This document shows positions 7,230 to 61,726 of a stretch of DNA of 64,000 nucleotides, piece by piece. A model generated the notes under the pieces. It did not search any database, was not told the origin of the DNA, and saw only the letters and a list, made by a program, of their open reading frames with translations. The DNA is from an uncultured virus (IMG/VR IMGVR_UViG_3300047668_001392) (taxonomy: Duplodnaviria > Heunggongvirae > Uroviricota > Caudoviricetes > Crassvirales): the IMG/VR virus record IMGVR_UViG_3300047668_001392. One strand, 5' to 3'. Position 1 is the first letter of the stretch. Each line of letters starts with the position of its first letter. Position numbers and translations under genes: made by a program.

Positions 7230-7237
7230 TATATTTG
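7230..7237 (+). promoter_or_regulatory. Bacteroidetes primary-sigma -7 box (TAnnTTTG)
   Basis: TATATTTG directly after a terminator, 4 nt before ATG 7242. Confidence 0.75.
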
Positions 7238-7241
7238 CTAT

Positions 7242-9867: not shown

Positions 9868-9875
9868 TATATTTG
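9868..9875 (+). promoter_or_regulatory. Bacteroidetes -7 promoter box
   Basis: TATATTTG 4 nt before ATG 9880. Confidence 0.7.
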
Positions 9876-9879
9876 TATT

Positions 9880-12145: not shown

Positions 12146-12153
12146 TATATTTG
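12146..12153 (+). promoter_or_regulatory. Bacteroidetes -7 promoter box
   Basis: TATATTTG directly after a terminator, 4 nt before ATG 12158. Confidence 0.75.
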
Positions 12154-12157
12154 TGGT

Positions 12158-12910: not shown

Positions 12911-13788
12911 TGAGTATGAACAAAGTAAAACTATCCCAGATTATAAATGACTTTATAATTACCTCTGATGGAGATGACTATGCTAATAACGCATCGGATT
13001 CTGCAATAAGAAACTTTGCGCTTAGAGGGATTAGAGAGATAGGATTTGATTTAGGTAAAAAGATTAAATCTATAAAAAGGACTGTAGATACTACTAACGA
13101 TACAGTAGCGTTACCAGACGACTTTGTAGATTTACTCAAATTAGGTATTGTTGGGGCGGATGGAGTAATCCATGTACTCAACCAAAACAAACATATTAAC
13201 TACTCTGGACAAATAAAGCAGGATACAACTGCAGCCACAACGAATGCAGCTGGCACTGTTATAGATGATGACACTACAAGTGTAAAAGATAGCCAGGATG
13301 GACCTTTAAATATTGAAGCGAACGAAATATTAAATAGAGAAGCATCTAAAAGCTCTACTACAGGCTCTACGGCTTCAGGAGACCAAGATTTCTACCTATT
13401 TCAGAACTATCTCCACCAGGGGGGTCTAGGAGGCCTATACGGCGTAGGAGGGGGTCATGCGGTAGGTCAGTATAGATTGAACCTAGATCAGGACAGAATA
13501 GAGCTTAAAATGAGCGGTTCGGGTTCTGAGGTGGTATTAGAGTATATTGCTGACGAAGCTAGATCTACCGATCCAGAGGTGCATGTGTATGCAGAAGAGG
13601 CCTTACGTTGCTATATATACTATAAAATAGTAGAAAGGAAGTCTAGTGTGCCTGCAAACGAAAAGGCTAGAGCTAGGGTGGAATATTATAACGAGAGAAG
13701 AAAAGCTAATTCTAGATTAAGCAACTTTACTAAAGAAGAAGCATTAAGTACTATACGTAGAAACTTTATGCAGGCACCTAAGTACTAA
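12910..13788 (+). CDS. tail ring / tubular protein
   Basis: RGIREIGFD, LPDDFVD, VVLEYIAD, EEALRCYIYY. Confidence 0.7.
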   Translation: MSMNKVKLSQIINDFIITSDGDDYANNASDSAIRNFALRGIREIGFDLGKKIKSIKRTVDTTNDTVALPDDFVDLLKLGIVGADGVIHVLNQNKHINYSGQIKQDTTAATTNAAGTVIDDDTTSVKDSQDGPLNIEANEILNREASKSSTTGSTASGDQDFYLFQNYLHQGGLGGLYGVGGGHAVGQYRLNLDQDRIELKMSGSGSEVVLEYIADEARSTDPEVHVYAEEALRCYIYYKIVERKSSVPANEKARARVEYYNERRKANSRLSNFTKEEALSTIRRNFMQAPKY

Positions 13789-19700: not shown

Positions 19701-20153
19701 ATGAGTATTGGGGGGCTAACAGAAGCAGAGGCTATACAAGAGATTGTCCCTGAAGAGTTCTTCAGTTCTTACATCGCAGCAAATCCGTTCCTTCAAGCGT
19801 CTTTACAAACTATTCTACAAGGTATAGCTACCTCTAATGGCGTAGAGGTTTCAGGGGTAACAGGATCGATGTTAGATGTCTGGGCAGGTAGTCAAACATC
19901 TAATGGAAATGGAGCATACAATTCGGTAGCAGAGGCTGTAGCTGCGGAAGGCATATCTACTAATCAAATTCAAGATTTTTTACAACAAATTGAATTAGTA
20001 AGCGCATCGCTCCCATCTGGAGGGTTTGATATTCTAAAATGGAAGTCTGATATTAATGGAGATGGTCAGATTGGGTCGGCAGATTTACTTTTCTTTTTAG
20101 CTACTTTCGGTGAACAACAATTATTCCCTGGGGATATAACATGGCTAATTTAA
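13788..20153 (+). CDS. tail stabilisation/muzzle protein (P22 gp10-like), N-terminal part with large insertions and a C-terminal dockerin-like motif
   Basis: LYFTDNTNEPRKIN, FAYQF..DG..S.ISPYS, NRLMYGNYLEG, FGIIYYDERGR, GCDNNPES, GGFDP..EEY. Confidence 0.8.
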   Translation: MAIDKIIPIRLDKSSDFKLVPKTSMVDALNMLITENESSGDNGSTGNLGVLKNIKGNDPISYLSGHNIAAGNAKIIGSVTDTKLKIVYFFVWHTIASEHGVYAYDQIGKLPISGGTKGKIVRIHKSALYAFPEHGYVKGNIIYTSQTRLDDSEIKPGAKKDFEKDAILYFTDNTNEPRKINVYQAMLGEDSSYELDDKIDFITACPKTPLTPIEFEFMADSSRTTSNFKSGPGFQFAYQFISKDGVESAISPYSDIAFSPGIINQGGLTVVDHSLHNVCILKIPNAGAEIKNIRILARQFNNPELVVLDEVSNTEIQENWVLAARAYYFYNDRIVRGVSNNEVNKQFDNLPRKAQAQSVVDNRLMYGNYLEGFDNVKTQCSASVSFENRGVELIDLKVRLIPAISEQQWAYDVEYGAGNIDTTDNLGQSLNQSSGARNKSAGYIIDCQEMPIDIAAGSVYNITVQISPNNNFHVYQATDSYHQSRHRGAFQQGLEYQIDYSMLPEAGNWSGEGSINQASPYGGEEGQWVNNEGNDNPFYGHQGLGRSGAEWIGDRIPNPILAGEGMYSTSNAEFWGIPYSGDNFGVTGNSDIGNAGTGPDAPEWKTIMGASLSSGETSKKVNFGTSAGNPLIIKGGQLEFSCTIEALIDIDSVGRDALTSAIAQALSGQDITWEGYNAFEVVNDEVEPLYSLDLGGDIFDGKQIPEGNYLSKLIVGAVEDEPGESTIYKAPLGHFIVNKADVTFSLERDAPFADIDPKYEMVRLCISSIENVETYSVFKKKFYNSPWFAFSKDYLTGSGSVFNQNDFFADTSYGFAGASGTFNQTLFQYEEQNNLEDWDYIFNNIVDDFNPNDLDISGDFGVTGVEIAGLETSFLAESMGTPVGVDAAPYAALLANVNQLQEQRFLGYLDFTQDGVFNQFFRFNKSQYQNKPRLSGVKELSPFSVVDGEGGMGGNLSHNLENSPGSVSLSSHPRRMRFNERLVNSELTGSTQDQVIRTIRVAGPEFTGTINSRYIPSLDSLVQNNVGGGGAIQQLQSTRTFIPLMQGSPIEGLNTGDDFQFPYSFYSTQAVDWPFVIDFNQKHSYIELLGVPFLFIPGGGEAVFDPNSSVDRTFKSNADHDFGIIYYDERGRHGFVNHLKTVHVPGYSSAERLGAIHGRSVINLSFSHDPPKWAHYYKLAYTKNTSVQNFIQYSAGGAFREDFEGSGAEVSSTLIYVSLNYLQESSMSYVAEWGARNPQGGLSMFKAIDGVSQKLRVISAYTDGENRDFFYNYEFDIVNMVLLGDSENPLTTTPETHPEMQGEFVILKDNSNADGFNWASVFDGSHKWGNNCIVELFTPARDRDEDTRFYYEIGDTYNINNPETDNPTHSVSSVVLDKGDVWWRRVPVNLREYDGGEFTDLILNGDPDDSLTSNFKPYYLETETASDLFKADATLIGRPNIILEDAIETIREASITYSGQSNPNSSKINYSSFNLTLSNFKGLQEEFGDINYMCNMEGDVFVIQSDRCTLVPASKTLFSDVQGSSTVAASKSPLGQERVFAGRAGCDNNPESVVQVGAYVYFAHKNLGRVYRFNPANGIQEISEQGMASYFRGIFKDAMDKSVTAGNFINYDDVRVVGGFDPVNEEYLLTVLDPETYGVTEGTGGGGFPEGGGEVIEDLTTINSLEQQLKNVMTAFLTATQPDGVTPAFDITTLPQELQAFYNTPLTDGRDITAFDGNENDVFDAGEIVSMSDIQVGVQESLNNFLVSELDITLEAMVEIINRADVTTTDRVVLYVNTMLQRMVNIDHQLKQGVVKLNDSRKSRESKHNQSALDASVPGFENPYWKNTYDFNVQVEEGWSGTSDLLVEAYEASGGDFTDPALLEAITALQAAQDAWGEESGYTNKPSRIQTLKQLWLSAEYHTLLQKVFSGYNVSGDDKRVGVNEISSNTPMYSWGVESTGEYLTPFTLANNLGGVLEEFKIYLRGLKDARMSIGGLTEAEAIQEIVPEEFFSSYIAANPFLQASLQTILQGIATSNGVEVSGVTGSMLDVWAGSQTSNGNGAYNSVAEAVAAEGISTNQIQDFLQQIELVSASLPSGGFDILKWKSDINGDGQIGSADLLFFLATFGEQQLFPGDITWLI

Positions 20154-20169
20154 TTATAAATAGATAGTT

Positions 20170-21417
20170 ATGGCAAATTACACAGGGAAAACAATAGCGT
20201 TCTCACATAAAGGTGGGTTCTGGAAGACTAGATATAGTTATACCCCGACATGTTATGCCGTTGTAGATAACGTTATGATCTCTACTAATAAGACATCCCT
20301 TGATACTTCTACTAATTCAACCGCTTTTTTCTGGGAGCACGAAGTAAACGCTAAGCGTAATGTATTTTACGAGACGCAATATAAATCATCGTTAACGTTG
20401 GTTTCTAACCAAGACCCTAGCGCTGTAAAGCTATTTAAGGCCTTATCTCTAGAGAGTAACTCTAAAGATTGGGTTGGAACGGCAGCTACGAATATTAACC
20501 CTGCAGGATCCCCTCAAAATGAGTTACAATTAGGTAGTATTAAGGGATTTGTAACTAAAGAAGGAAATCAATACAGTGAGTTACCTAAATCTTTAAATAA
20601 CTCTAACAGCAATTTAGACTATGTGTGCCAGCTGGATTCAATTATAGACAGCTCTATGCTTACTGGATTGGATGAGCTTTCAGCAGATCTTAATAATGAT
20701 GGAGTTGTTGACGTTTCTGATATTCTTATATTTTTAGGACAATTCGGAGGCCTTGATCCGTTGGGTATTGCTGATTTAGATTTAGATGGAACAGTAACAA
20801 CTAATGACCTCCTTTTATTAACAGCGCAATTCGGAACTTTTACTAGCAATGCTGATTCTTCAAATTTATTTTTTGATCTTAGTCAACCACTTCTTTCTCT
20901 AGTTGCTTCGGGTTGGGCAGCCTCAGTCTTGTCTTCTTCCTTAAACACTCCTCTTTTAGGTGGGGGCGGAAGTCAAGCTGTTTTTGTAAGCGCACTGGAA
21001 GATGTTTATACATTAAGTTATTCTTCCAATGCGTGGAATTTTGTGAATTTTGTTTCTGAAACCACAGTCTTTAACGTAAATAGTCCGTATGTATATGTAC
21101 ACTCGTACACTAGTGACGGGAATGTAATTTTAGGGGTTAGCGGGGATGTTACATTGGACGCAATTACAGCTTTAATAAGTTTCACAAATAGTCTAGGTCC
21201 TGAATGGGATACAATACAATTATATTCTATTACCTCGCCAGACATAAACGGTGACCCCATGAGAGGGCAATATCTACATCTCCATTTAGAGAACGATAGC
21301 ACCACCCCTGTAGAGACATATGCTATAAACGTAGACTTTGAGAATACTAAGCTAGACGGGAGTAAAGGTAGCACTCAAAAGAAGCCTAAACAAAAGGCTT
21401 CCCCTAGTTCAAAGTAA
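20170..21417 (+). CDS. C-terminal part of the muzzle/tail stabilisation protein, with an inserted dockerin-like double repeat
   Basis: TIAFSHKGGFWKTRYSYTP, VKLFKALSLES, FVTKEG, GDPMRGQY: motifs normally at the C-terminus of the single-chain protein. Confidence 0.7.
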   Translation: MANYTGKTIAFSHKGGFWKTRYSYTPTCYAVVDNVMISTNKTSLDTSTNSTAFFWEHEVNAKRNVFYETQYKSSLTLVSNQDPSAVKLFKALSLESNSKDWVGTAATNINPAGSPQNELQLGSIKGFVTKEGNQYSELPKSLNNSNSNLDYVCQLDSIIDSSMLTGLDELSADLNNDGVVDVSDILIFLGQFGGLDPLGIADLDLDGTVTTNDLLLLTAQFGTFTSNADSSNLFFDLSQPLLSLVASGWAASVLSSSLNTPLLGGGGSQAVFVSALEDVYTLSYSSNAWNFVNFVSETTVFNVNSPYVYVHSYTSDGNVILGVSGDVTLDAITALISFTNSLGPEWDTIQLYSITSPDINGDPMRGQYLHLHLENDSTTPVETYAINVDFENTKLDGSKGSTQKKPKQKASPSSK

Positions 21418-24470: not shown

Positions 24471-27400
24471 ATGGAAATTAACGAACTAGGATATACCAAC
24501 GAGCCGCTAGCAGTAGAAGAACCTATTGCTGCAGCACCGCTTGTTCCTGAAGGCGAACCACAAGGCGATCCTGAAAAGAAAAAGAAAAAGGATATGGTCT
24601 GGGAAGAAGACAGCGAGGCTGTTTTGCTTGGGTTGTATAACGACGGGAAACCTTTAGGGCGAGCAAGAAAAATTATAGCGAATCAATATAAGTGGAAGAG
24701 TAAGGACCAGATGCAATCTGTAGTAGACTTCTACGCAGTTAAAGACGCTGAAAAAAAAAATCTTGGCGGGTCGGAATCGGGCGGTTCTACTTCGGGTGGG
24801 AGTGATGGTTTAGATAATGCTTTAGGTGCGTATAGCGGAACGGACTCCTTAGCTTCTGGATATAACAATATAGGGTCTGCGATAATTATAGGGGGTAATA
24901 CTCATGATGTTCCCAACGAAGAATATACCAGAAAATATGGGAAAGGAATGGTATATAGGTTCGGTGCCGTTAGAGAAGGGGAGACTAAGGACGACATCCA
25001 AATCCTACTAGACAATAACGGAGATAATCCTTATCTGCTAAACGCTATGGATGAGCTTCAGAAAGACGCCTTTCAAAGGTGGGTTTTTAAAGAGGTGGAC
25101 GGCAACCCTTTGTTTACCAATATATTAAACCTTCCAGGAAACGAAGATGTAAAAGAACTTTTTGAGACTACCAACCTTGTAAATCCTTTAATATTTCATA
25201 AGGAGTTAGTTATGGACCTCCTTGCTAGAGCGAGCCGAGACTATAAAAAAGATTTACAGGTTGATGGGTATTCTTTTCCTATACCAATCACAAGTGCCAG
25301 AAGTTTACAAAAGAGTTATGATGAACCAGCAGAAAAAACATTAAAAGGATTAAATACTTCCTTTATGGATTTCTATGGGGGGATGATAAAAGATAGTTTA
25401 CCTAATCGCATTTCTAGAGATGATGAGAAGTTAAAGGATTTAGAATATATCTTTAAAGTGACGAAGGGGTATAGCTTTGACCTTACAGGGGAGGGTACGG
25501 TAGGAAATCAAGATTTCTGGGAGCAGACTGGAGGTCATTTAAAAATCATGGGTTTAACTGTAGCTAATATGTTCTCTTGGCTAAGCATGAAGCTAGGAAA
25601 AGGGATGCAGGATAGTGCGGAAAATCAGGAAAGCAAACGACAGGCGATAGATGAAAGAAAGGATCGCATAGAGGCCGTTCAGATGAAAATGAATTCTTAC
25701 AAGAAAAACATTACAGAGAATGTACAGGCGTGGTGGAATAGCGGGGGAGAGACAGATTGGGATTGGGACTTACTAAGGAGCGGAACGGCTCAGTCTTACG
25801 GGATGATGATAGAGGCTTCACCTTATGTCGTTGGTGCAGGGCTTATGGCTTACACAGGTGCGTCACCACTTCAGATGGCTTTTGGGATGAGCACTTACGG
25901 GGCTACGCAAGACGCTATGCTTATTGAAAACAACATTCAATTCGATAAATTTGTAGATAAAGAAACAGGAGAGGTATATACATATCACGGGGACGATAAA
26001 AGAGACGGGGCGATTAATATGATCGATTACACAAGCGAGGATACTAGAGAAGATATAGATAGAAAAATCTTAGAGAAATTTGATCTTCAAAGAAATGACG
26101 AGAATAGACTTTGGTACCTAACTAAAACTTTTGCTACTGGATTTGTAGCCGACAGGGTTACATTTGGGATTTTCAATAGGGCCATGCAGAAAGCAACTAC
26201 AGGTGGGCTTTTGAGATATGGCAAGCCTATGGATATTGCGAAGGAGGTATTTAAAGGTATGGGTATAGCTGTACCGCAAGGGGCTTTAGGGATTTTCCCA
26301 GACGCCTATATGAGAGCTTTATCCGAAGGGGTAGCTACAGGAGACCCAGACTTAGATGCAGAGAACGCCTTTAAAGTAGCTATAGAAGTTACGCTAGGGA
26401 CTTTACCTTTAGGTTCTACTATGTTTGGTCTTGGTTGGGCGAAAGGAAAAGCAATCCATTTCTCTAAAAGTAGAGTTGGCCGCGACGGAATGAACGTATA
26501 TCATAGAGAGCAGATAGCAGCTTTAATGAAGGTGGTAAATAACAAAAGGGTTTCCTATACGGATAGGATGAATGCTAGGAGGGAGATACTACATATGGAG
26601 CAAGAAGGAAGGATTCGCCAGCAAGACGACGCTAATTTTTACGATTATGTCTCTAGAAAGAAACCGTCCGATATGGATGAGATTGGGAGATTAAATATTC
26701 AGATCGAGCGCACAATAAATAGCATGAATACGCTCTCTAAGGCTCCAAAAGTTATGGGGTTAGATGGTAACGAGGGAGCTAAAGCGGTATATAAAAAAGC
26801 ACTAGATAGTTTAATCCAAAAGAAAGGCGCTATAGAAGAGAGCCATAGGGCGGGGTATGAGGCTAGTAAAGGAGGTGGTGACCCTGCAACAAAAACCGAG
26901 GTAAAGATAACTGCAAGTAAAACAATTGCAAAGCAATCTTTAATAGATGGGGGGGTTAAAAAACCCACTCCTAGCCAAGTGACGGAAGAGCAGGTAAGAC
27001 TCTCTGAGGTAGATTTCAGAAAGACTCCTGAGTGGGTAACAAAAAACATAGAGGACAAACCAAATACAACCCTTACAGAAGAGAGCTTAAGGAATTTACT
27101 TAATTCTGAAAAGTTCGCTATACTTACAGCGGAGAACCCGAAAGGTAAAGGTCAAAGTGAGGCTCAGAATAAAGCAGCTAACGATCAGCTTATACAGTGG
27201 CTTAAAGAAAACGGGTATGTATACCATGAAGTTACAGGGAAGTTTGGATCGGGGGAGAATAGTATATTGGTAGAAAATATGTCACGGAAGGAGGCTAGAG
27301 ATTTAGCAAGAATATTTGACCAGCATAGTGTAGCGACTAAAAAAGGCTTAGTTAAATCCGATGGGAGCTCTGTTGATTTTAAAAAGAAAGTAAATATAAC

Positions 27401-30400
27401 AAAGGGTCTCCCGAATTCTAAGGCAGATAATTACACAACGATTAAATTAGAAGACGGTACTGTAATAACAGTATCCATGGACACTAAGGTTAAAGGGAAG
27501 GGGGCTGATAAGAAAAACATAACGACGGACGAGTTCTTTAATACTGGTTCAGAGAATTTTTTAGTAAAAGAATCGCAGGTTAGGATTTCCGATTCCGACG
27601 CTGTAGTAGGGCTTGAAAAGAGTGGGACAAAACCTAAAGGAAAGGATGGGGAATACACGGCGCAGCAAATATCGGATAAGAAAATTCAACTTTTTAATGA
27701 TGCCGCTATAATAGCAACTCAAGGGAAAGGGGGGACTACACCTGTAAATAAACTACCAGATATGACGCCTGGGACTAAGGCTTGGGAGAAGATGCTTGCT
27801 GGAGTAGATCAGATATTACGGAATACCCCTGAAGGCGGACCAAAAACTATAGAGGTAAAACCACCTACAATTAATCCGTATCCTGTAGACAATACACCCA
27901 AAGGTCCAGTACGCTTAGCTTTAAATAAACTAGGGAATAGATTGAGGGGTATACGTAACAACTGGCTTGTAACAAATCCTATGGGATATAGTGAGCGAGG
28001 GTGGAATATTTTCAAGAGAAGAGAAGGGCCTAAAGAAAGAGCGGGGGATATAATAACCCTTCAGGGTCGTGATCAAAGAGTACGTGACGATCAATTAAAT
28101 CGTGACGCTTTAGAGATAATGAATATATTTAAAAGTATAAGACGCGATGATGCAGGGAAAAGAATAAAGAAAGACGTACACAAAAGAAATATTATTGAGA
28201 TAAATGAATACCTAAGGGGGAATGATGATGCTAGAATATCTTTTCTATCTGAAGCTCAAAGGTCTCAACTAGATTACGCGCGGCAAAAAGTAGACGGTTT
28301 GACTGAGATCCTTATTGATTTAATATCAAGTAAAGGGAAGCTTAGTGATTCGGAAAAGAATTTTATTCAGAAACTAAGGGGTAACCAAGGCACTTACCTA
28401 AAGAGAAGTTATGAGGCCTTTTCTGATAACGGGAAATGGATTGAACAGTTAAATTCAACGAAGGGCGAAATGCCTAAGGCGAAGCAGGCTCTTATCGACG
28501 ATGCGGCTAGATTTGTTATGGAAGAACAAGGTAAATCTTTTGACGATGCTAGGGCTGTTGTACGAGGATACATTCAGGATCTTGCGGGTGGATTTAACAG
28601 CGGAGGGATCGCTAAAGGACAGGGTCTTATAGGGGCTTTAGATACACGAATGTTTAAGGGGAGGAAGGAAATTCCAGAAGCGTTTAGAAAGCTACTAGGT
28701 GAGATTGAAGACCCAATCTTTAATTACGCTGCTACGGTGAATAAACTAGGGAACTATGTAGGCGATTGGCAATTCCAAAATAATTTTAGTAACCACTTAA
28801 TTGAGACTGGATTAGGTAGAAAAAGTGACGCTAATGGAAATGGACCTCAAGGATGGGAAAGGTTAGCCGTTAAAGGAAAGGCTTTTGATGTTTTATCTGA
28901 TGTATGGGTACCAAAAGAGTTTAAGAAGATGTATAACGACATGCAACCTCTAGGGCAACCAGGAGGTAGTCTCTTTAGATTGTACTTAAGGATACAAGGT
29001 ACAGTGAAAGGTTACAAAACGGTTTTCTCCCCTGGAACTATTGCAAGGAATATGGAGAGTGGAATCCTTCTATCCGCTAATGCTGGGCACTTTGCTTTGG
29101 CAGATTTTAAAAATATAGGTGAGATTTCTAAGATGGCTTGGGGGGACTCAGAAGGCTTAGTTAAGAACCGTAAAACTATGGAGTCGGATAAACTAAAGAG
29201 GTTAGGGGTTATTGGGGATACGGCTAGAGCGGGGGAGTATATGATGATGATGAGAGATTTCAGTTCTGCTGACGCGGCGGTAAAAGCTGCAGAGATATCT
29301 GGTAAAGGTTTAAAGGGGGCTAGAAAAAGATTTAATGACGTAGCGCAAAAGGTTTACGCTTTTGGAGATGACTACTATAAGCTTAGTGGGTACTACCAAG
29401 AGGTAAGGAAATTCTTGAGAGATGATCCTAATATGTCTAGGGCAGATGCCGAGATTAGAGCTGCAGAGCGTATCCGTGGGGGATACCCTACATATTCTGG
29501 CTTACCTAGAAACATAAAGAGGTTAAGAAGGTTTCCTCTTACTGGTATGTTTGTTTCCTTTGCTTACGAGGTACCTAGAACTACAGCCAACAACGTAAGA
29601 TATGCAGCTCAAGATTTACGTGAGGGAAGAACTCAAATGGGTATAGAGAGACTTTTAGGTTTAGGGCTATCTACTTCATTAATTTCTGCAATGGTAGCAA
29701 AATCTCAAATAGAGTTTGGGTGGGATGACGATGACACTAAAGCAATACAAGGAACAGGAGCATTTTGGGATAGGAACAGTCAATTTGTAGCGGCGGATTA
29801 TGCTGACGAAAGGGGTGAAGATGGGGTGTTAAAGTATGTAAACCTTTCTAGTATAGTTCCTAATGAGACTTTTTTAAGACCTATAAGAACTTTATTTAAA
29901 GATGGGGCACCTACATTAGAAAGTACTCAAGCCGCTTTATTAGATCTCATGGGGCCTTACATAGCTCTAGACGCTACAACCAACTTTGTTAATGAGATGA
30001 TGACGGGACAAAAGAAAGGTGGGGGGACAATAGGCTATTGGGATAAAGATAAACATCCGCTTGAAAATATAGATGAGAACTGGGATAATATACTTAAGCA
30101 TATGATGGTTGGGGTGGGCCCTGGATATTTTCGTAACATACAAGACTTCGCTAGGGCTAATAAGATTATGCCAGAATTCTTCGGTGGGAAAGCAAATGAA
30201 TATAAAGAGTATACCAACGAAGAAGCTTTCTTGAGGATGATGGGTATTAGTATACAAAGCTTTGACTTAGGTTTGGCTGTCCCTTGGAAGGTCTCCGAAG
30301 AGGCTAGAGACTACCAAAGCTATAAGAAGTTCCACGAGAAAGCGGATAAGATAGATTTATGGATGGGTAAGGATTTCCCTAGCGGGGATGAAACCCCTCC

Positions 30401-31097
30401 GTTTGATCCTGAGATGTCTACTGAGGATAGAATCGCCGAATACAATGGGGTTGGACCTGACTTTGAATACTTAGAGGAATATGGGACTGAGAGAGCTCGA
30501 AAACAATACAACTCTTTTGTCCGCGCCCAAGGGTATGCAGACCTAGCGTTTAAATCTGGTATCTCGCAAGAGAAGTTTCTTTTCACTTTACAGGACGCTA
30601 ATATCTCTAAAGCAGACGCGCAGGCGTTGTGGGTTAACGCTCAAGGAGAAATTCCTTTAAGCCTAGCTAAAAAAACATTAAAAGAGGAAAGGTTTGTAGA
30701 TCTAAGAAATCAGCTTGGATGGGAAAATGCACCTAAAACAGTTGATGACGTAGAAGATCCTACTAAGAGCGAGATAGCGGAAAAGCGTGAACAAATGCTA
30801 GAAACTAGAGGCGATCGGGATGTAATGCCGTGGGCTATAGATGTAATCTCTAAAGAAAGGACTAATACCCTTAGGGAAAGAGTTATATACATACAAGAGA
30901 AACTTGGTAGCGATCAAACTGTAATAGACGCTAAGATATTGGAGCTATATAATACTATAGGTAAAGTAAATAGCTGGTATTTAGATGAGTGGGTAAGGTT
31001 AGCTGGGAAAGGTCCAGGCTTAACTCCTGAAGAACAAAAAGAAGCAAACAGACTACGTTTAGAAAAACTTGAAAATGAGCAAGAAAAAGAAGATTAA
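24471..31097 (+). CDS. large ejected polyvalent-type protein with an embedded DUF3293-like domain
   Basis: 2208 aa; hydrophobic Gly-rich segments; FAILTAENPKG..N..AN..L..W; no RNAP DxDxD motif seen. Confidence 0.6.
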   Translation: MEINELGYTNEPLAVEEPIAAAPLVPEGEPQGDPEKKKKKDMVWEEDSEAVLLGLYNDGKPLGRARKIIANQYKWKSKDQMQSVVDFYAVKDAEKKNLGGSESGGSTSGGSDGLDNALGAYSGTDSLASGYNNIGSAIIIGGNTHDVPNEEYTRKYGKGMVYRFGAVREGETKDDIQILLDNNGDNPYLLNAMDELQKDAFQRWVFKEVDGNPLFTNILNLPGNEDVKELFETTNLVNPLIFHKELVMDLLARASRDYKKDLQVDGYSFPIPITSARSLQKSYDEPAEKTLKGLNTSFMDFYGGMIKDSLPNRISRDDEKLKDLEYIFKVTKGYSFDLTGEGTVGNQDFWEQTGGHLKIMGLTVANMFSWLSMKLGKGMQDSAENQESKRQAIDERKDRIEAVQMKMNSYKKNITENVQAWWNSGGETDWDWDLLRSGTAQSYGMMIEASPYVVGAGLMAYTGASPLQMAFGMSTYGATQDAMLIENNIQFDKFVDKETGEVYTYHGDDKRDGAINMIDYTSEDTREDIDRKILEKFDLQRNDENRLWYLTKTFATGFVADRVTFGIFNRAMQKATTGGLLRYGKPMDIAKEVFKGMGIAVPQGALGIFPDAYMRALSEGVATGDPDLDAENAFKVAIEVTLGTLPLGSTMFGLGWAKGKAIHFSKSRVGRDGMNVYHREQIAALMKVVNNKRVSYTDRMNARREILHMEQEGRIRQQDDANFYDYVSRKKPSDMDEIGRLNIQIERTINSMNTLSKAPKVMGLDGNEGAKAVYKKALDSLIQKKGAIEESHRAGYEASKGGGDPATKTEVKITASKTIAKQSLIDGGVKKPTPSQVTEEQVRLSEVDFRKTPEWVTKNIEDKPNTTLTEESLRNLLNSEKFAILTAENPKGKGQSEAQNKAANDQLIQWLKENGYVYHEVTGKFGSGENSILVENMSRKEARDLARIFDQHSVATKKGLVKSDGSSVDFKKKVNITKGLPNSKADNYTTIKLEDGTVITVSMDTKVKGKGADKKNITTDEFFNTGSENFLVKESQVRISDSDAVVGLEKSGTKPKGKDGEYTAQQISDKKIQLFNDAAIIATQGKGGTTPVNKLPDMTPGTKAWEKMLAGVDQILRNTPEGGPKTIEVKPPTINPYPVDNTPKGPVRLALNKLGNRLRGIRNNWLVTNPMGYSERGWNIFKRREGPKERAGDIITLQGRDQRVRDDQLNRDALEIMNIFKSIRRDDAGKRIKKDVHKRNIIEINEYLRGNDDARISFLSEAQRSQLDYARQKVDGLTEILIDLISSKGKLSDSEKNFIQKLRGNQGTYLKRSYEAFSDNGKWIEQLNSTKGEMPKAKQALIDDAARFVMEEQGKSFDDARAVVRGYIQDLAGGFNSGGIAKGQGLIGALDTRMFKGRKEIPEAFRKLLGEIEDPIFNYAATVNKLGNYVGDWQFQNNFSNHLIETGLGRKSDANGNGPQGWERLAVKGKAFDVLSDVWVPKEFKKMYNDMQPLGQPGGSLFRLYLRIQGTVKGYKTVFSPGTIARNMESGILLSANAGHFALADFKNIGEISKMAWGDSEGLVKNRKTMESDKLKRLGVIGDTARAGEYMMMMRDFSSADAAVKAAEISGKGLKGARKRFNDVAQKVYAFGDDYYKLSGYYQEVRKFLRDDPNMSRADAEIRAAERIRGGYPTYSGLPRNIKRLRRFPLTGMFVSFAYEVPRTTANNVRYAAQDLREGRTQMGIERLLGLGLSTSLISAMVAKSQIEFGWDDDDTKAIQGTGAFWDRNSQFVAADYADERGEDGVLKYVNLSSIVPNETFLRPIRTLFKDGAPTLESTQAALLDLMGPYIALDATTNFVNEMMTGQKKGGGTIGYWDKDKHPLENIDENWDNILKHMMVGVGPGYFRNIQDFARANKIMPEFFGGKANEYKEYTNEEAFLRMMGISIQSFDLGLAVPWKVSEEARDYQSYKKFHEKADKIDLWMGKDFPSGDETPPFDPEMSTEDRIAEYNGVGPDFEYLEEYGTERARKQYNSFVRAQGYADLAFKSGISQEKFLFTLQDANISKADAQALWVNAQGEIPLSLAKKTLKEERFVDLRNQLGWENAPKTVDDVEDPTKSEIAEKREQMLETRGDRDVMPWAIDVISKERTNTLRERVIYIQEKLGSDQTVIDAKILELYNTIGKVNSWYLDEWVRLAGKGPGLTPEEQKEANRLRLEKLENEQEKED

Positions 31098-33307: not shown

Positions 33308-33746
33308 TTTCCATGGATTTTTTAATCTCTAAGACACACTGATCGACTTGTCTTTTATTTTTAGCTAAATATACGTCATAACCTAGCTTATTATCCATAA
33401 TATGCTTTAAAAATATCTTCCATCTCATGGGAAAATCATGATGGGAGGGTAAGTACCCTTTTGTTTCAATGATCCACTTGGAATCCTTCCCTACAAAATC
33501 AGGTGTATACCTAATAGGCTGTTGAACGGAGTTAGTCCTATCGGACATATCCTTACCCTTAGGGGTCATCTTGAAGTACTTATGTTCAAATCTAAAAGAC
33601 TCCATTAAAACGAACTGCTCGCTCTCATAAGAGAAAGCTATCCCAGATTCACGTAACTTGTCTGAGCAGTACTTCTCTATGGCACTAGCAAACTTCCCTA
33701 GCGATTTTTTTTTAGGTTTAAGTTTCTTTCTTGTTTTTTTATGCAT
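33300..33746 (-). CDS. T7 endonuclease I-like Holliday junction resolvase
   Basis: FAS..E..C...L...YE, RYTPDF..WIIETKG. Confidence 0.75.
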   Translation of the reverse strand: MHKKTRKKLKPKKKSLGKFASAIEKYCSDKLRESGIAFSYESEQFVLMESFRFEHKYFKMTPKGKDMSDRTNSVQQPIRYTPDFVGKDSKWIIETKGYLPSHHDFPMRWKIFLKHIMDNKLGYDVYLAKNKRQVDQCVLEIKKSMENE

Positions 33747-33750
33747 GTGG

Positions 33751-33758
33751 CAAAGTTA
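33751..33758 (-). promoter_or_regulatory. Bacteroidetes -7 promoter box
   Basis: TAACTTTG on the minus strand, 4 nt before ATG 33746. Confidence 0.65.
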
Positions 33759-54435: not shown

Positions 54436-54951
54436 ATGAAATTAGAAGTAATTAGATTTAACAAAGGAAAGGATTCAACAAATGGGATACTATTTAATAC
54501 AACGAATGAAAGAAAATTTTTATGCTATACTCTCGAAGATGAGAGTCGTACTGAAAAAGTGTGGGGAGAAACTTGTATACCTGAAGGAGAGTATAATCTC
54601 GGTCTTCGAACTGTGGGCGGGCTTGATGCCAAATACTCTAAAAGGTTTTCTGATATCCATATGGGAATGCTTCATGTACTTGATGTACCTAATTTTAAAT
54701 ATATTCTTATTCATTGCGGTAATACTGACGAAGATACTGCTGGATGTCTTCTCTTGGGCGATTCGCAAGAGAACAACAACATCAAAGAAAACGGATTTAT
54801 AGGGCGGTCTACCCAAGCGTATTTCCGTATCTACGAAGACATTGCTAAGGCAATTGAAAGCGGGGAGAAAGTAACTATAACGTACCGAGATTTCGCAACA
54901 TGCCTTCTTTTATCGCAAGACGACGCGATAAAGATGCTTGACGAGTGTTAA
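54436..54951 (+). CDS. DUF5675 family (L,D-transpeptidase-like) putative endolysin
   Basis: CYTLED..ETCIPEGEY..ILIHCGNT..DTAGCLLLG. Confidence 0.8.
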   Translation: MKLEVIRFNKGKDSTNGILFNTTNERKFLCYTLEDESRTEKVWGETCIPEGEYNLGLRTVGGLDAKYSKRFSDIHMGMLHVLDVPNFKYILIHCGNTDEDTAGCLLLGDSQENNNIKENGFIGRSTQAYFRIYEDIAKAIESGEKVTITYRDFATCLLLSQDDAIKMLDEC

Positions 54952-56692: not shown

Positions 56693-56969
56693 ATTCACTA
56701 CCGTAAGCGCCTCTAAAAGGCTTATGCAAAGCATGGAGATAGCTATAGACAACATGATTGAAGAGATTAAAAAACCTGTAGATCCAGAGATAAACGGGAG
56801 TGCACGTAAAGCGGAACTTCAGTCTATAAAGCAAACCGCCACGGACTGTAAGGAGCTTATTATAGAGAGGCAGAGGTTAGCGCAGATGGTAAAGGATCTT
56901 GAGGTTAGCGGGGATATAAAAGACATAAAGGACTACTCTGGAGGATTTGCAGAAAGATTTTCTAAGTAA
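56679..56969 (+). CDS. putative terminase small subunit
   Basis: Helical ~96 aa; ends GFAERFSK; upstream of TerL. Confidence 0.5.
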   Translation: MSKYKFTTVSASKRLMQSMEIAIDNMIEEIKKPVDPEINGSARKAELQSIKQTATDCKELIIERQRLAQMVKDLEVSGDIKDIKDYSGGFAERFSK

Positions 56970-57343
56970 TGTGTATTGTTACTGAATATAAAGAATGTAA
57001 AGATTGTAAAGAAGTTAAACCTAAAAAGGACTTTACCCCCCATAAAAAATGCGTAGATGGGGTTGAGGGCTCATGTAAAAAGTGCAGAGCAAAAAGAAAG
57101 CGTGAAACTCATCAAATAAAGAAAAAACAATTAGTTTCTCTTGCAGGCGGAAAATGCGAGGTTTGCGGTTATAATAAGTGTGATTCGGCTTTAGAATTTC
57201 ACCATCGAGATCCATCACAAAAATCTTTTGCTATTAGCGAGTCTAAAAGATCATTTAAAAACTTATTAGCTGAATCTAAGAAGTGCGCTCTTTTATGTGC
57301 TAATTGCCATAGGGAGCTTCACGCGGGGTTAATTAAGTTGTAA
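56969..57343 (+). CDS. HNH endonuclease
   Basis: CEVCGY..LEFHHRDP..LLCANCHRELH. Confidence 0.9.
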   Translation: MCIVTEYKECKDCKEVKPKKDFTPHKKCVDGVEGSCKKCRAKRKRETHQIKKKQLVSLAGGKCEVCGYNKCDSALEFHHRDPSQKSFAISESKRSFKNLLAESKKCALLCANCHRELHAGLIKL

Positions 57344-57352
57344 CTTTACGGT

Positions 57353-57712
57353 ATGAAGAAATTATTATTTATCTTACTCTTACTGCCTGTATCTGTTCTA
57401 TCTCAATGTAATCAGCATGTCTTTAGCTCTGTAGGGGCTGAGAAATGGACAAACTTTCAGTACCAAGACTGCGATGGAGGGGCTCATTATTTTGGGTTGC
57501 CTGCAGGTGGATATACTATAATATATTGCGCCGACATAGGTACTGCATTTGTCCTTAATGGTGATGGGTTTGTTTACCCACTACAAGCAGAACATCCTGC
57601 ATATGCTTCGTGCGTACAGGATGATTGTCCAGGTGATTTAAACAACGACGATGTAATTGATGTACAGGACTTACTATTATTTTTAGAAAACTATGGACTT
57701 CCATGCGAATAA
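57353..57712 (+). CDS. secreted protein with a C-terminal dockerin-like Ca-binding motif
   Basis: Signal peptide MKKLLFILLLLPVSVLS-Q; CPGDLNNDDVIDVQDLLLFLENYGLPC. Confidence 0.75.
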   Translation: MKKLLFILLLLPVSVLSQCNQHVFSSVGAEKWTNFQYQDCDGGAHYFGLPAGGYTIIYCADIGTAFVLNGDGFVYPLQAEHPAYASCVQDDCPGDLNNDDVIDVQDLLLFLENYGLPCE

Positions 57713-58935
57713 ACCTAATACTTTTATTAGCTTTATGGGCCCCTATTTTATCTGCTCAATGTGATGTAAGCATAAGTAGCTGGGATGCGGCATCAGGGGA
57801 TATCGTCATTGAGGCTATCAACAGTGAGAACTGCGGGTGTAATGAGTTTACGTCTGAAGCCAACACCTGCGAGAATAGTGGGAGTCCTTCCGTAAATAAT
57901 AATACAACTGTATCTCATATAGTCCTGGGACTGCACGTAGAGGGATTAGATTATAACTGGGGATGCATTTCCGCTACTAATCATCCAGGGTGGACGTTTA
58001 AAGCGTTTACTTTATTTGGGAATCAAGTCTTAGAGAGCGGAGATACATGGAGTGCTAATGTATATGACTCCCCAAGTAGTAATGACTGCTGGGCTGAGAT
58101 ACTATCAAATGATACTTTGTGTACCGAATTGGTACTATGGCAGATTAACCTATCTCAAACGGCTACAACAGATAACGGAGGGTGGGCCGTAAACCCTAAC
58201 GTTGCGGCTCAGACACAGAGTTACCCTGATGTAGATCTATCTAATAACACTGCGGTTAACTGCGCTCTTCCTGCGTGTGACACAGTGTACGTAGATGTAG
58301 AAGTTATTGAATACCTTACTGATACTATAGTAGAATATGTAGATGTTGAGTGGATAACAATTGACACTTTTTATATTACGCAAGTGGACACATTAGTAGA
58401 GTATGTCCAATTACCCCCAGATACTGTACAGGTAGTTGAGTATGTAAATATTATAGAATACCTATACGATACTATTGTATTAGTAGAAACAGATACTCTT
58501 GTTGAGTATGAGTATATCTACTTAACCGATACGATGTATGTAGAAACGGTTGTATACGAATACATCTATATTTACAATACAGACACTATAACTGAATTTG
58601 TATCTGAGTCTATATATATTGATTGTAATACTGGAGAGCAGTGCAATCAAACATTCCCGTGTGACGAGGTATCTATTTTTGCCCCTAATGCCGTTACCCC
58701 AAACGGGGATGGCTGGAATGATACGTGGATGGTTATTGCGGACGGAGCTTGTTGGGATCAATGGGAAGTTCGTATTTACAACCGATGGGGTGGGCTAGTG
58801 TGGATTAGCGCTTCCTCAATGGATGAGTGGGATGCTGACGTAGCTACGGGGGTTTATGTATATACCATAACGGCTCACAGCGCTGTAAATGTTAATGTGT
58901 ATCAATTTAACGGAACAATAACGGTATTGTATTAA
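57703..58935 (+). CDS. secreted protein with a T9SS type-B (gliding-motility-associated/CHU_C) C-terminal domain
   Basis: Signal peptide ending LSA-Q; DT.VEY repeat stalk; IFAPNAVTPNGDGWND.W..IYNRWG..W..GVYVY.I..G.ITV. Confidence 0.85.
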   Translation: MRINLILLLALWAPILSAQCDVSISSWDAASGDIVIEAINSENCGCNEFTSEANTCENSGSPSVNNNTTVSHIVLGLHVEGLDYNWGCISATNHPGWTFKAFTLFGNQVLESGDTWSANVYDSPSSNDCWAEILSNDTLCTELVLWQINLSQTATTDNGGWAVNPNVAAQTQSYPDVDLSNNTAVNCALPACDTVYVDVEVIEYLTDTIVEYVDVEWITIDTFYITQVDTLVEYVQLPPDTVQVVEYVNIIEYLYDTIVLVETDTLVEYEYIYLTDTMYVETVVYEYIYIYNTDTITEFVSESIYIDCNTGEQCNQTFPCDEVSIFAPNAVTPNGDGWNDTWMVIADGACWDQWEVRIYNRWGGLVWISASSMDEWDADVATGVYVYTITAHSAVNVNVYQFNGTITVLY

Positions 58936-59209: not shown

Positions 59210-59419
59210 ATGAAATATTTACTTATCTTCATGTCTGCTATATTACTAGCGTCATGTTCTGTTCAAAACAAACACAGAAGGTCTCAAGTGAGACATTACA
59301 ATCAATGCTGGTGTTTAGACCCCTGGAATGGTGGTGCTGAATGGTGTTGTGATGGACCAGCGCCAAAATACATGGCCCCATACAAACACTCTAAAGGTTA
59401 CATTAGAGCTAAATTTTAA
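59210..59419 (+). CDS. small Cys-rich lipoprotein
   Basis: Lipobox ILLASC. Confidence 0.65.
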   Translation: MKYLLIFMSAILLASCSVQNKHRRSQVRHYNQCWCLDPWNGGAEWCCDGPAPKYMAPYKHSKGYIRAKF

Positions 59420-59423
59420 TAAG

Positions 59424-59612
59424 ATGGCAGAGTATAAATGTGAATGCAGCGATGACGTTGTAGATAAATCAGGTGTAACAATAAGATATATTGAGGGGGA
59501 AGGGGTAATACATGACGTAAAGTGCGAAAAATGTGAGAAGTACATGGATTTAGCTAACCCAAAATCTGGTGCGCCTGGTTTTCGATCTAATAGATATGGT
59601 CAGACATTTTGA
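59424..59612 (+). CDS. small Zn-ribbon protein
   Basis: MAEYKCEC..VKCEKC. Confidence 0.6.
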   Translation: MAEYKCECSDDVVDKSGVTIRYIEGEGVIHDVKCEKCEKYMDLANPKSGAPGFRSNRYGQTF

Positions 59613-61726
59613 GTATACTCCTAGATGTTAAAGATTATGAAGACCCAGCTGTTAAGATTTGTCCCAACGGTACGGAAGGTGAGCTTATCGAACTCGGTGG
59701 GTTACTCATTTGTCTTCCAAAAAGGCCTCCGAAGAAAGAAATTTCAGGATATAAAGAACCAAACTCTATGCAAATGTGGGGAAGGGTACTTATGCCGCAG
59801 GAATTGTCTCGTATTCGTTCTATGGATGAGTGGGCGGAAATGCCACGGGAGTTTAGAGCGAGGTTTCGTCCATATATCGAGGAAGAGTTTAGGCGTAGGC
59901 GTGAAGGTTTTTGGTTTTATAACAACGGTACAGCTACATATATTACGGGGCGTCACTACATGATGATACAGTGGACCAAGATGGACATTGGTTACCCGTA
60001 CTTCCTGAACTTTCAAAGAGATATCTTCTTGCATTTAGCTGCGTGTGAAATCGATCCTAGATGTATAGGGCAGCTATATACTAAGTGTCGTCGTAGTGGG
60101 TACACAAATATGTGCTCATCTGTACTTGTAGACGAAGGGACTCAAGTAAAAGATAAACTTATGGGTATACAGTCTAAGACTGGTAAAGACGCCCAAGAAA
60201 ATATATTTATGAAGAAGGTAGTCTTTATGTTTAGAAACTATCCTTTCTTTTTTAAACCTATTCAAGACGGTACAACTAATCCTCGTATGGAGTTAGCTTT
60301 TAGGGAGCCGTCGAAAAGAATAACCAAGAAGAATAAAACCTCTCAAATGGGGGAAGCTTTGAATACGGTTATCAACTGGAAAAACACAACAAACAATGCA
60401 TATGACGGTGAAAAGCTACACCTGTTGTATTTAGATGAAGCAGGAAAATGGGAAAGACCTACAGACATAAGAGACGCTTGGAGGATTCAGAGGACTTGTT
60501 TGATCGTCGGAAGAAAAATCGTGGGGAAGGCAATGGTCGGAAGCACGGTAAATCCAATGGACAAAGGAGGGAGTCAGTACAAGGATCTATGGGAGGACTC
60601 AGATCCTTTGGAGAGGAACGCGAATGGGAGGACTAGAACTGGTCTATATAGACTTTTTATCCCTGCATATAACTCTTTAGAAGGATTCTTTGATAAGTTT
60701 GGCTACCCTGTAGTTGACGACCCTATAGAGACTATAGAAGGTATAGACAATGAGTATATCTATACAGGAGCTAAGACATTCTTAAAGAATGAAAGAGACT
60801 CTTTAAAAAACGATGCGTCGGAATTAAACGAGGTGGTAAGGCAGTTCCCGTTTACCGAAGATGAGGCCTTTAGAGATAGTATAGAGGGGAGTGTATTTAA
60901 TATCGGTCAGATTTACGAGCAGATAGAACATAATGACGAGCTTTTCCCAAACCCCGTTGTAGCGGGAAATTTTGTATGGAAAGGGGGGGTAAAAGATACT
61001 GAGGTAGTATTTAGCCCAAATGCTCAAGGTAGATTTAAAATTGCTTGGATGCCTCCTCCTGACTTTAGAAACCAAAAGAAAACAGAAAGAGGTAAGCGAG
61101 TAGCCCCTCATTCAGACTTTGGCGTAGGAGGGGTTGACTCATATGACCTTGACGCTACCGTAGATGGCAGAGGATCTAAAGGTTCTTTGCATTTATATAA
61201 CAAGTTCCATATGGAGCACCCTTGTAACATGTTTGTTTTGGAGTATGCCTCAAGGCCACCTTTAGCTAAAATATTCTACGAAGACGTTTTAATGGCCGCT
61301 GTATTTTATGGTTACCCTATATTAATAGAGAATAATAAATATGGTATAGCGAGGCACTTTGAAGCTAGAGGGTATGACGGGTACCTAATGGATAGACCTA
61401 AACACTTAGTTAGCGCTAGTGGGATGAAGTCTAAAACAAAAGGTATACCATCTAACTCTCAAGACGTTATCCAGGCTCACGCACACGCTATAGAATCCTT
61501 TATACATGACCATGTAGGAGTGAATAGAGAAACGGGAGATGTTGGGAAAATGTATTTTAATAAAACGCTAGAGGATTGGATAGGTTACAAAATAGACGAT
61601 AGAACTAAATATGACCTTACAATTAGCTCTGGATTGGCTCTACTAGGAGCGCAAAAAGCCAAGCCAAAAAAGACTTCTGACTTGTCTGAAAAACGATTCT
61701 TTAGGAGATATCAAGTAATCGGATGA
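59609..61726 (+). CDS. terL: terminase large subunit
   Basis: KCRRSGYT Walker A, LYLDEAGKW Walker B, GVDSYD nuclease motif, IENN. Confidence 0.92.
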   Translation: MSILLDVKDYEDPAVKICPNGTEGELIELGGLLICLPKRPPKKEISGYKEPNSMQMWGRVLMPQELSRIRSMDEWAEMPREFRARFRPYIEEEFRRRREGFWFYNNGTATYITGRHYMMIQWTKMDIGYPYFLNFQRDIFLHLAACEIDPRCIGQLYTKCRRSGYTNMCSSVLVDEGTQVKDKLMGIQSKTGKDAQENIFMKKVVFMFRNYPFFFKPIQDGTTNPRMELAFREPSKRITKKNKTSQMGEALNTVINWKNTTNNAYDGEKLHLLYLDEAGKWERPTDIRDAWRIQRTCLIVGRKIVGKAMVGSTVNPMDKGGSQYKDLWEDSDPLERNANGRTRTGLYRLFIPAYNSLEGFFDKFGYPVVDDPIETIEGIDNEYIYTGAKTFLKNERDSLKNDASELNEVVRQFPFTEDEAFRDSIEGSVFNIGQIYEQIEHNDELFPNPVVAGNFVWKGGVKDTEVVFSPNAQGRFKIAWMPPPDFRNQKKTERGKRVAPHSDFGVGGVDSYDLDATVDGRGSKGSLHLYNKFHMEHPCNMFVLEYASRPPLAKIFYEDVLMAAVFYGYPILIENNKYGIARHFEARGYDGYLMDRPKHLVSASGMKSKTKGIPSNSQDVIQAHAHAIESFIHDHVGVNRETGDVGKMYFNKTLEDWIGYKIDDRTKYDLTISSGLALLGAQKAKPKKTSDLSEKRFFRRYQVIG

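Follow-up and report, generated by a model that had tools for sequence, protein, structure and literature searches.

Why would a phage encode proteins that appear to be addressed to the surface of its own host? The question is raised by two overlapping genes, here termed A and B, in a stretch of 64,000 nucleotides (nt) from an uncultured virus (Crassvirales, IMG/VR record IMGVR_UViG_3300047668_001392); this whole stretch is referred to as the window. Gene A (57353..57712, + strand) encodes a predicted exported protein of 119 amino acids and gene B (57703..58935, + strand) one of 410 amino acids, composed of a signal peptide, a head, a stalk and a type-B sorting domain of the T9SS (type IX secretion system). 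The two open reading frames (ORFs) overlap by 10 nt, as described in an earlier note, which was made from the letters of this DNA and regarded the pair as a candidate module for host-surface remodelling or superinfection exclusion. Our own answer is tentative and held at somewhat less than even confidence: A and B would form a phage-restricted, mobile cassette that recruits three envelope pathways of Bacteroidota so that a protein of the phage ends up on the infected cell, the likeliest purpose being an altered surface. Taken alone, export and T9SS-dependent display of B are predicted with good confidence; an exclusion purpose, taken alone, is on the unlikely side. To our knowledge, the borrowing of a host secretion system by phages for the display of their own proteins has barely been studied.

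Protein B and its sorting domain

The C-terminal domain (CTD) of type B that had been proposed for B was borne out by hidden Markov model (HMM) searches. The domain spans residues 321–410 (58663..58932, + strand), and Pfam CHU_C (PF13585) matched residues 327–394 with 56.0 bits against a cut-off of 27 (E 4e-15); TIGR04131 passed marginally, with 35.2 bits against a cut-off of 35. Relatives of B score 49–58 bits with CHU_C. A CTD at the extreme C-terminus combined with an N-terminal signal peptide, the latter recognised by inspection and conservation, is the layout of T9SS cargo. The CTD was modelled as an immunoglobulin (Ig)-like β-sandwich with a predicted local distance difference test (pLDDT) score of ~80–87. 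Comparison of the B model with 48,161 chains returned the CTD of NucA in the T9SS translocon as best match (8glk_D, Z 9.1, root-mean-square deviation (rmsd) 1.9, 72 aligned residues), followed by the CTDs of FspA, RemA, PorZ, RgpB and PorU at Z 7.4–8.2; these solved CTDs are of type A and Ig-like sandwiches commonly reach Z 7–8, so that the fold match alone is weak. The modelled fold agrees with the HMM assignment without proving it; taken together, HMM and fold identify B as a genuine member of the type-B CTD proteins. Foldseek matches of the whole B model (C3b, SiiE and an ice-binding adhesin) were rejected, as they run across the unreliable stalk with an rmsd above 15.

The N-terminus of B, MRINLILLLALWAPILSA followed by QC, resembles a signal peptide with Gln at position +1. 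Among the B homologues listed, the first Cys is without exception directly preceded by Q or QT. Protein A shows the same layout by inspection and conservation, namely an n-region with K or R, a hydrophobic core, S or A, and then Gln. Its predicted signal peptide covers residues 1–17, and the mature protein would start with QCNQHVF. Gln at +1 is retained in 36/36 homologues of A, in keeping with the Q-rule for signal peptidase I, and the position of the cleavage site is predicted. Bacteroidota-style signal peptides with Gln at +1 had been noticed on both proteins before, and the conservation of this residue in both families supports them. A lipoprotein reading was rejected for A and B alike, since Gln or Gln-Thr precedes the Cys. 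The Q-rule has been described (PMC5837995, PMC10653852), and Q-rule proteins of P. gingivalis phages have been noted (PMC10367356).

The head of B (residues 19–192, 57757..58278, + strand) is β-rich, contains nine Cys and 20 acidic residues versus a single basic one, and was modelled with pLDDT ~55–83. Outside the CTD, B matched nothing in Pfam, NCBIfam or PHROG. Of 276 homologues of the head, 120 were listed, and not one of these bears an organism name; the names given are only gene-call strings and the automatic label ‘gliding motility-associated-like protein’ of the Joint Genome Institute (JGI). The same automatic name is attached to a viral protein in BFVD (36% identity). The ESM Atlas cluster nearest to the head is 100% viral and carries CHU_C; the other rows are weak and either Ig-like or macroglobulin-like.

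The stalk of B as a predicted glycosylation array

Between head and sorting domain lies a stalk (residues 193–305, 58279..58617, + strand), 82% of which is V, I, Y, T, E or D and which is devoid of K, R, C and G. The O-glycosylation motif of Bacteroidota is D-(S/T)-(A/I/L/V/M/T) (PMC8550257). Such sequons occur nine times in B: eight in the 113 residues of the stalk, all of the form D-T-[AILVM], one in the head and none in the sorting domain. The stalks of 42/42 B homologues hold 5–12 sequons each, as compared to ~1 in shuffles of the same composition; the observed count was matched by no more than 5 of 2000 shuffles. Stalk length varies between 62 and 244 residues among the homologues. The model of the stalk is unreliable (pLDDT < 35), and no tandem DNA repeat was detected in B, the stalk repeats being degenerate at the DNA level. 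Of the “DTxVEY repeat stalk” described earlier, the stalk stands; the repeat is better read as an array of sequons (8 per 113 residues versus ~1), that is, as a variable-length stalk apparently built for O-glycosylation. As a predicted exported protein with sequons, B qualifies as a candidate substrate of the general O-glycosylation system of Bacteroidota. In the marine run X10, one contig joins 58428 to 58938 and omits 509 nt, comprising the distal stalk and the sorting domain; its shorter side has only 30 letters, and the skip could represent a variant or else an error of the assembly.

Protein A

Protein A is very acidic (15 D+E versus 1 K+R), and Q18, C19 and five further Cys are invariant in all 36 homologues. 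Relative to A of the window, the ratio of nonsynonymous to synonymous substitution (dN/dS) does not exceed 0.16 in any of the 11 pairs, out of 35, with computable dS, which is saturated in the remainder; strong purifying selection acts on A. Values of dN range from 0.08 to 0.25 for the closer homologues and reach 0.58–0.68 in divergent forms (loci L052, L053 and L065). No Pfam or PHROG family was found for A. In the one confident model of five (pLDDT 81), A adopts a small β-sandwich with a C-terminal helix. This model found no match, either in the PDB with Foldseek (best E 0.4) or among the 48,161 chains with VIA-align (best Z 3.4), a result that does not show the fold to be new.

The C-terminal part of A contains a putative dockerin-type unit of calcium loop plus helix (residues 93–115, DLNNDDVIDVQDLLLFLENYG, 57629..57697, + strand), in which D95, D106, L107, L111 and G115 are invariant. 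Dockerin_1 (PF00404) scored 13.4 bits against a cut-off of 22.9 and aligned over profile positions 1–17 of 57 only. A search with the A profile against 1.84 billion representatives gave 4338 hits. Most of the 150 listed cover only positions ~88–120, often with several repeat-region matches per protein, and full-length matches were confined to a handful of clusters. When eight repeat-only proteins from the top of the list were scanned, five passed the Dockerin_1 cut-off and two more matched the model below it. The dockerin-like end that had been claimed for A thus amounts to half a repeat with a sub-threshold score: A appears to end in one dockerin-type calcium-loop unit and, by family definition, is not a dockerin.

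Linkage of A and B and restriction to phages

In IMG/VR, scans located B at 79 loci and A at 55, one A locus being a spurious 18-residue match. At 54/54 real A-centred loci, B lies within 2.5 kb of A, in the order A-then-B at 42 and B-then-A at 12, and most of the pairs overlap or abut. Conversely, A was seen at 57/79 B-centred loci. When one genome from each of 185,579 species of bacteria and archaea was scanned with a pattern, A was confirmed in 1/41 candidate stretches. This sole match (locus L132) is contig WLWP01000006.1 of 61.6 kb, binned as a Pseudomonadales metagenome-assembled genome. The contig encodes GroEL/GroES, the A–B pair and repeated fibre-like genes, resembles the IMG/VR locus L006, and is probably a mis-binned phage contig. 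With tblastn, B matched just two huge uncultured phages among 50,697 phage records, by way of the CTD, and megablast of the region gave no match; in these searches, which may have lacked records close to the window, no cultured phage proved to carry the pair. Within the scope of the genome scan, the A–B cassette is restricted to phages.

At least half of the sampled words of the region were found in 17 runs from 13 studies, one of these runs possibly being the source sample, and each run with the region is a metagenome of seawater, ice, marine or freshwater origin. Contigs from two of these runs, the independent metagenomes X2 and X3, bridge the HNH/A/B and the B/downstream junctions with 0 differences, and the window-type synteny around A and B recurs in dozens of IMG/VR contigs.

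Backbone diversity and exchange of modules

The window-type synteny is seen at many loci, with large terminase subunits (TerL) 79–100% identical. In L012 and L046, the pair is found directly after an endolysin gene, and TerL, 47–48% identical, lies tens of kb away. Directly upstream of A, L046 encodes a Peptidase_M15_3 protein (phrog_894 endolysin) and L012 an endolysin-family protein of phrog_33083; an ORF similar to the latter by its N-terminal sequence occupies the same spot in L033, and in L016 a protein with PG_binding_1 and Amidase_2 domains is encoded two genes downstream. Other arrangements place a gene between A and B, namely a DUF5675 gene in loci of the L004 type or a DUF285/leucine-rich-repeat gene in L006 and L132. 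Further small-genome contexts are represented by L016, L022, L035, L039, L041, L054 and L056. Two jumbo-phage records of 162 and 199 kb (L052 and L053) carry the pair and gave no TerL match. Because the pair occurs at another genome position in phages with a TerL only 47–48% identical, and in jumbo-phage records as well, A–B appears to be a conserved, horizontally mobile cassette shared by very different phage lineages.

Several of these arrangements merit separate description. The DUF285/BspA-type leucine-rich-repeat gene overlaps the end of A and encodes 829 amino acids in L006 (3515–6004) and 429 in L132 (8297–9586). A DUF5675 gene is also present in the window (54436–54951); no solved relative of the family was found (best E 0.18), and a motif-based lysin assignment is unsupported. 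In the jumbo-phage carriers L052 (8085–8471) and L053 (8124–8510), and likewise in L057 (2711–3112), the pair adjoins host-like metabolic genes, encoding an MGS-like domain protein, a flavodoxin-like protein and a cytidylyltransferase-like ORF.

Exchange is also evident within B. The head is kept at 74–82% identity with the CTD at 39–45% in L017, L020, L027, L035, L044 and L054, and the CTD is kept at 78–82% identity with the head at 27–35% in L041, L042 and L117. Compared with the window, L017 has TerL and portal proteins 97% identical and A 82% identical, and B is only 59% identical. Head and sorting domain are thus swapped independently between close relatives. Two natural types of sorting domain occur, with endings of the TVLY and of the TIFR type. 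Stalk and tail would constitute a portable display module, with the sorting domain exchanged between near-identical phages. In L077 (89–2971), a 960-residue secreted M43 peptidase ends in the same stalk and type-B sorting domain. In L044 (4692–6011) and L080 (3701–8856), a secreted M43 metallopeptidase takes the place of A beside a B-like gene, and that of L044 begins with an A-like mature N-terminus. L012, a related ~64-kb phage with a TerL 48% identical, encodes in addition to A and B a 712-residue exported protein with a type-A sorting domain (449–2587, record G002, also in L133; Por_Secre_tail 39–44 bits).

A promoter-like box upstream of A

The pair had been credited with a promoter of its own, and a promoter-like box is indeed present: TAACTTTA (57341–57348, + strand) ends 4 nt before the ATG of A and overlaps the stop codon of the upstream HNH gene. 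We read this sequence as a putative −7 box of Bacteroidota type, TAnnTTTG being presumably the −7 element of Bacteroidota promoters. The same box recurs at −12 of the ATG of A in many relatives with otherwise different upstream sequence. If TAnnTTTG is the −7 element, its position would imply a leaderless or near-leaderless transcript of A. The pattern TAnnTTTR-N4-ATG has five matches in the window (7230–7244, 9868–9882, 12146–12160, 33744–33758 on the − strand, and 57341–57355), compared with a shuffle mean of 2.4 and five or more in 7/100 shuffles. All five fall exactly at ORF starts (7242, 9880, 12158, 33746 on the − strand, and 57353), which may suggest that leaderless transcripts from Bacteroidota-type −7 promoters are used more widely in this phage. 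For the ORF called from TTG 7224, the box suggests ATG 7242 as the true start. A sigma-70 scan gave 7 promoter-like sites versus a shuffle mean of 12.6, and is uninformative as its consensus differs from Bacteroidota promoters.

Genome context and host

The window was taken for a phage genome from the outset, and domain searches agree. It encodes TerL (59609–61726, phrog_6681, E 1e-199), a portal protein (from 61766, phrog_6547) and a primase-helicase, and Pfam and PHROG scans revealed a BT4734-like primase domain and, by domain match, a crAss-type muzzle C-terminal domain (20170–21414). Two giant ORFs of 2121 and 2208 amino acids (13788–20153 and 24471–31097) match virion structural PHROG families, the larger one containing a DUF3293 domain. 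Muzzle domain and giant ORFs appear to place this marine phage near the crAss-like podoviruses. No tRNA was found in the window and no integrase among the window ORFs scanned against Pfam; the carrier of A–B is a lytic, crAss-like, marine phage. Flavobacterium, Cellulophaga, Tenacibaculum and Maribacter are the hosts of its nearest cultured TerL relatives (~39% identity), from which we infer a Flavobacteria-like host.

The pair was said to be inserted between TerS/HNH and TerL genes. The HNH endonuclease gene (56969–57343, + strand, phrog_2255, E 5e-33) is located directly upstream of A and TerL downstream of B; no TerS was identified in the window. In the cultured relative Elemovirus NC_055853, TerL follows GroES directly, so the ~2.9 kb between GroES and TerL in the window represents extra DNA compared with Elemovirus. 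Genes flanking the Elemovirus endolysin carry no sorting domain. Insertion is supported in this sense, though not as a one-off event, given a cassette that is conserved and mobile between lineages of phages. Among the syntenic loci, the HNH gene is present upstream of A in some close relatives (e.g. L008, L017 and L026–L028) and absent in others (e.g. L005, L011, L013, L014, L019, L036–L038 and L040); the variable insert at this position is the HNH gene, not the A–B pair. The GC content is even across the A–B region.

Three further small ORFs lie between B and TerL (58958, 59210 and 59328). The second of these (59210–59419, + strand, 69 amino acids), just upstream of TerL, has a classic lipoprotein signal with an LLASC lipobox and could be a small outer-membrane lipoprotein, for example an exclusion or spanin-like factor. 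It is overlapped in another frame by a 94-residue ORF with CxxC pairs (59328–59612, + strand). Both are kept in relatives, in some of which the order differs (e.g. L005 and L011). A crude hydrophobicity screen flagged four ORFs of the window: A, B, one small lipoprotein and an antisense ORF at 40281, which is likely spurious.

Proposed role of the pair and alternative explanations

From the features described above we infer export, glycosylation, T9SS dependence, contact between A and B, and a purpose for the pair, as follows. A and B would cross the inner membrane by Sec, and signal peptidase I would cut before the invariant Gln according to the Q-rule. In the periplasm, the stalk of B would receive host O-glycans at its eight D-T-x sequons. 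The host T9SS, together with a host PorP/SprF-like shuttle, would then recognise the CTD of B, carry B out and hold it on the surface, and A would work jointly with B, whether by binding it or by targeting the same host component. Type-B CTDs require cognate PorP/SprF-like shuttles, one of which can be shared by orphan cargo (PMC12618676), and type-B cargo owes its surface anchorage to the binding of PorP-like proteins (PMC9143113). On the cell surface, B may mask or push aside those adhesins delivered by the T9SS that serve flavobacterial phages as receptors; masked receptors would keep other phages out, or spare the loss of progeny on infected cells and debris. Surface remodelling that hides or displaces receptors is favoured because Flavobacterium strains mutated in T9SS and gliding genes are resistant to phages, the adhesins SprB and RemA being presumed receptors (PMC9804748). 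In short, the A–B pair probably remodels the host surface.

Several observations weigh against this reading. Besides the weakness of the fold match and the single confident model of A, the model of B as a whole is poor (pLDDT 57). As already apparent to the earlier note, no PorP/SprF partner accompanies the pair: Pfam found no PorP_SprF match among the window ORFs, so a host shuttle must be assumed. Five related viral records gave no PorP_SprF match either, in a search that proves little because its controls were equally silent. Orphan type-B cargo with no adjacent shuttle gene is known (PMC12618676), and a missing shuttle gene does not exclude T9SS membership. With respect to the partnership, no A was seen at 22/79 B-centred loci; the contig ends before the position of A in L003 and L018, and A is lacking from whole, distant B lineages at 36–39% identity (L058–L062 and L071–L074). 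The divergence of A does not track the type of either head or CTD in the neighbouring B, and the lack of correlation with the head weakens a simple model in which A binds the head. No RNA run is among those listed with the region. Finally, an endolysin stands beside the pair in several backbones, which would equally fit a lysis-linked role or a hot spot for morons.

The best-surviving alternative, which we regard as unlikely, is that the glycosylated stalk presents a binding head, with A as a lectin-like or calcium-dependent co-factor, and tethers infected cells to particles, algae or neighbours, whereby nutrient supply would increase or progeny would be more likely to meet new hosts. A head–stalk–anchor layout is typical of adhesins, and the aquatic origin of all runs with the region is in line with such a role. 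The stalk–CTD module also bears other heads, such as the M43 peptidase of L077, which suggests a general display of useful activities, and added enzymatic capabilities have been proposed for phage T9SS cargo by Bellas et al. (PMC7468147). Conversely, neither the head of B nor A has a recognisable binding fold. The B model does match the giant calcium-binding adhesin SiiE and an ice-binding adhesin weakly in Foldseek (E 7e-4 to 8e-4), but these alignments cross the low-confidence stalk (rmsd > 15), and a lytic phage has little time to gain from adhesion.

A more specific version of surface remodelling treats B as a retargetable device for receptor displacement, and is a long shot: the CTD of B would capture one PorP/SprF-like shuttle, evict the gliding adhesin that serves as receptor and put a glycan-coated decoy in its place. 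The CTD swaps would then retune B to the shuttles of different hosts, and A would act on the periplasmic, disulfide-linked connection between shuttle and track or ride out on B. If true, this would be the first case of superinfection exclusion in which the shuttle of a secretion system is competed for, and it would open a natural way into the specificity between type-B CTDs and shuttles.

A late function in lysis or exit is about as improbable. Here, the site of action of A and B would be the outer membrane or the periplasm, and they would aid release, for instance by weakening that membrane or its T9SS-anchored coat, and partly replace spanins. The endolysin genes beside the pair in unrelated backbones (L046, L012 and L016) are suggestive of such a role, as are the DUF5675 gene in loci of the L004 type and the overlap of A and B, a feature that spanin genes often share. 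Accessory genes, for their part, often cluster near lysis cassettes. Neither protein resembles a spanin, however: there is no lipobox, Gln standing before Cys in place of Gly, Ala or Ser, no membrane anchor after cleavage and no coiled coil, and the models are β-rich and devoid of long helices. In a complex that spans the periplasm, a domain that sorts proteins to the surface would be of little use. Moreover, no endolysin is adjacent to the pair in the lineage of the window or in most other backbones, and DUF5675 has no demonstrated function.

It is slightly less probable still that the pair jams the T9SS and gliding, with B blocking or saturating a PorP/SprF-like shuttle or the translocon and A disturbing the disulfide-linked track, so that secretion and gliding stop. 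The dependence of type-B cargo on specific shuttles (PMC12618676), the invariant N-terminal Q-C and six invariant Cys of A, and the exchange of CTD types between near-identical phages would all be compatible with jamming. Yet six Cys most simply form three internal disulfides, with no sign of a free thiol or of host contact, and the conserved, elaborate head and the glycosylated stalk would be needless for a plug.

A place in the virion, with B as a fibre or decoration protein whose Ig-like end merely resembles a T9SS CTD and A as its assembly partner, is highly improbable. The pair adjoins packaging genes in the window, and Ig-like domains are said, after Fraser et al. 2006, to be common on phage particles. 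Nevertheless, both proteins have predicted cleavable Q-rule export signals, the CTD passes curated cut-offs, no structural PHROG family was matched, and in other phages the pair is found among non-structural genes. A host-DNA misassembly, which the earlier note had named as refuting its reading and to which the JGI label of the B homologues might point, is dismissed on account of the 17 runs from 13 studies, the bridging X2 and X3 contigs, the dozens of syntenic IMG/VR contigs, the level GC and the absence of A from any bacterial chromosome in the scan of 185,579 species.

Significance and comparison with known systems

Under the surface-remodelling reading, B would join three pathways that are found only in Bacteroidota, namely processing by the Q-rule, the general system of O-glycosylation and type-B sorting by the T9SS. 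The obligate partner and the spread over very different marine phages argue for a strong and general selective benefit. The natural swaps of head and sorting domain represent ready-made chimeras for an open question of T9SS research, the specificity of type-B domains for their shuttle. If the purpose is receptor masking, the pair would add a new way of excluding superinfecting phages, in a group of bacteria that is abundant in the ocean.

Among known systems, B is closest to type-B cargo such as that of the SprB/SprF and other Flavobacterium johnsoniae pairs and of PG1035/PorP in P. gingivalis, with which it shares a predicted Sec signal and a terminal CHU_C/TIGR04131 domain. The head–stalk–anchor layout and the expected retention on a PorP/SprF-like protein are likewise in common (PMC9143113, PMC12618676). 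Unlike SprB-type cargo, B is phage-encoded and has no nearby shuttle gene, so that it would need a host shuttle; in this need it resembles the orphan type-B cargo of F. johnsoniae, which is served by Fjoh_1677. Further differences are its small size (410 amino acids), a head of no known family and the strict pairing with a second exported protein.

Phage-encoded T9SS cargo as such is already known, with type-A domains. De Jonge et al. reported T9SS sorting domains in crAss-like contigs (PMC6949934), and these crAss-BACON ORFs and ‘Cryophage’ (Bellas et al. 2020, PMC7468147) resemble our case in that genes of Bacteroidota phages carry a T9SS sorting domain. The cargo is variable between phage variants, and a change of the surface or a role in superinfection was proposed. 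Unlike in B, the domains are of type A and reside on recognisable enzymes or BACON repeats, and the consulted excerpts of these papers describe no partner gene, glycosylation stalk, cross-lineage spread or swapping of head and CTD. In the literature searched, mostly outside subscription journals, type-A cargo was found and no description of phage type-B T9SS cargo or of an A–B pair.

For protein A, the comparison is with Dockerin type I (PF00404). The last ~30 residues share the calcium-loop-plus-helix pattern, and the A profile retrieves Dockerin_1 proteins; unlike a dockerin, A has one repeat unit rather than two and a score below the cut-off, and no cohesin was identified. At the level of function, the pair can be likened to Llp of phage T5, reportedly a superinfection-exclusion or receptor-masking protein of a lytic phage. 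The likeness is one of working principle only, a small exported phage protein that is produced during infection and hides a receptor, with no relation in sequence or structure; Llp-type proteins are said to act directly on the outer-membrane receptor, with no host secretion system involved. What distinguishes the locus described here from these precedents is the obligate partner A, the occurrence on phage backbones that are unrelated to each other, the confinement to phages, the exchange of head and tail independently of one another, and the promoter arrangement.

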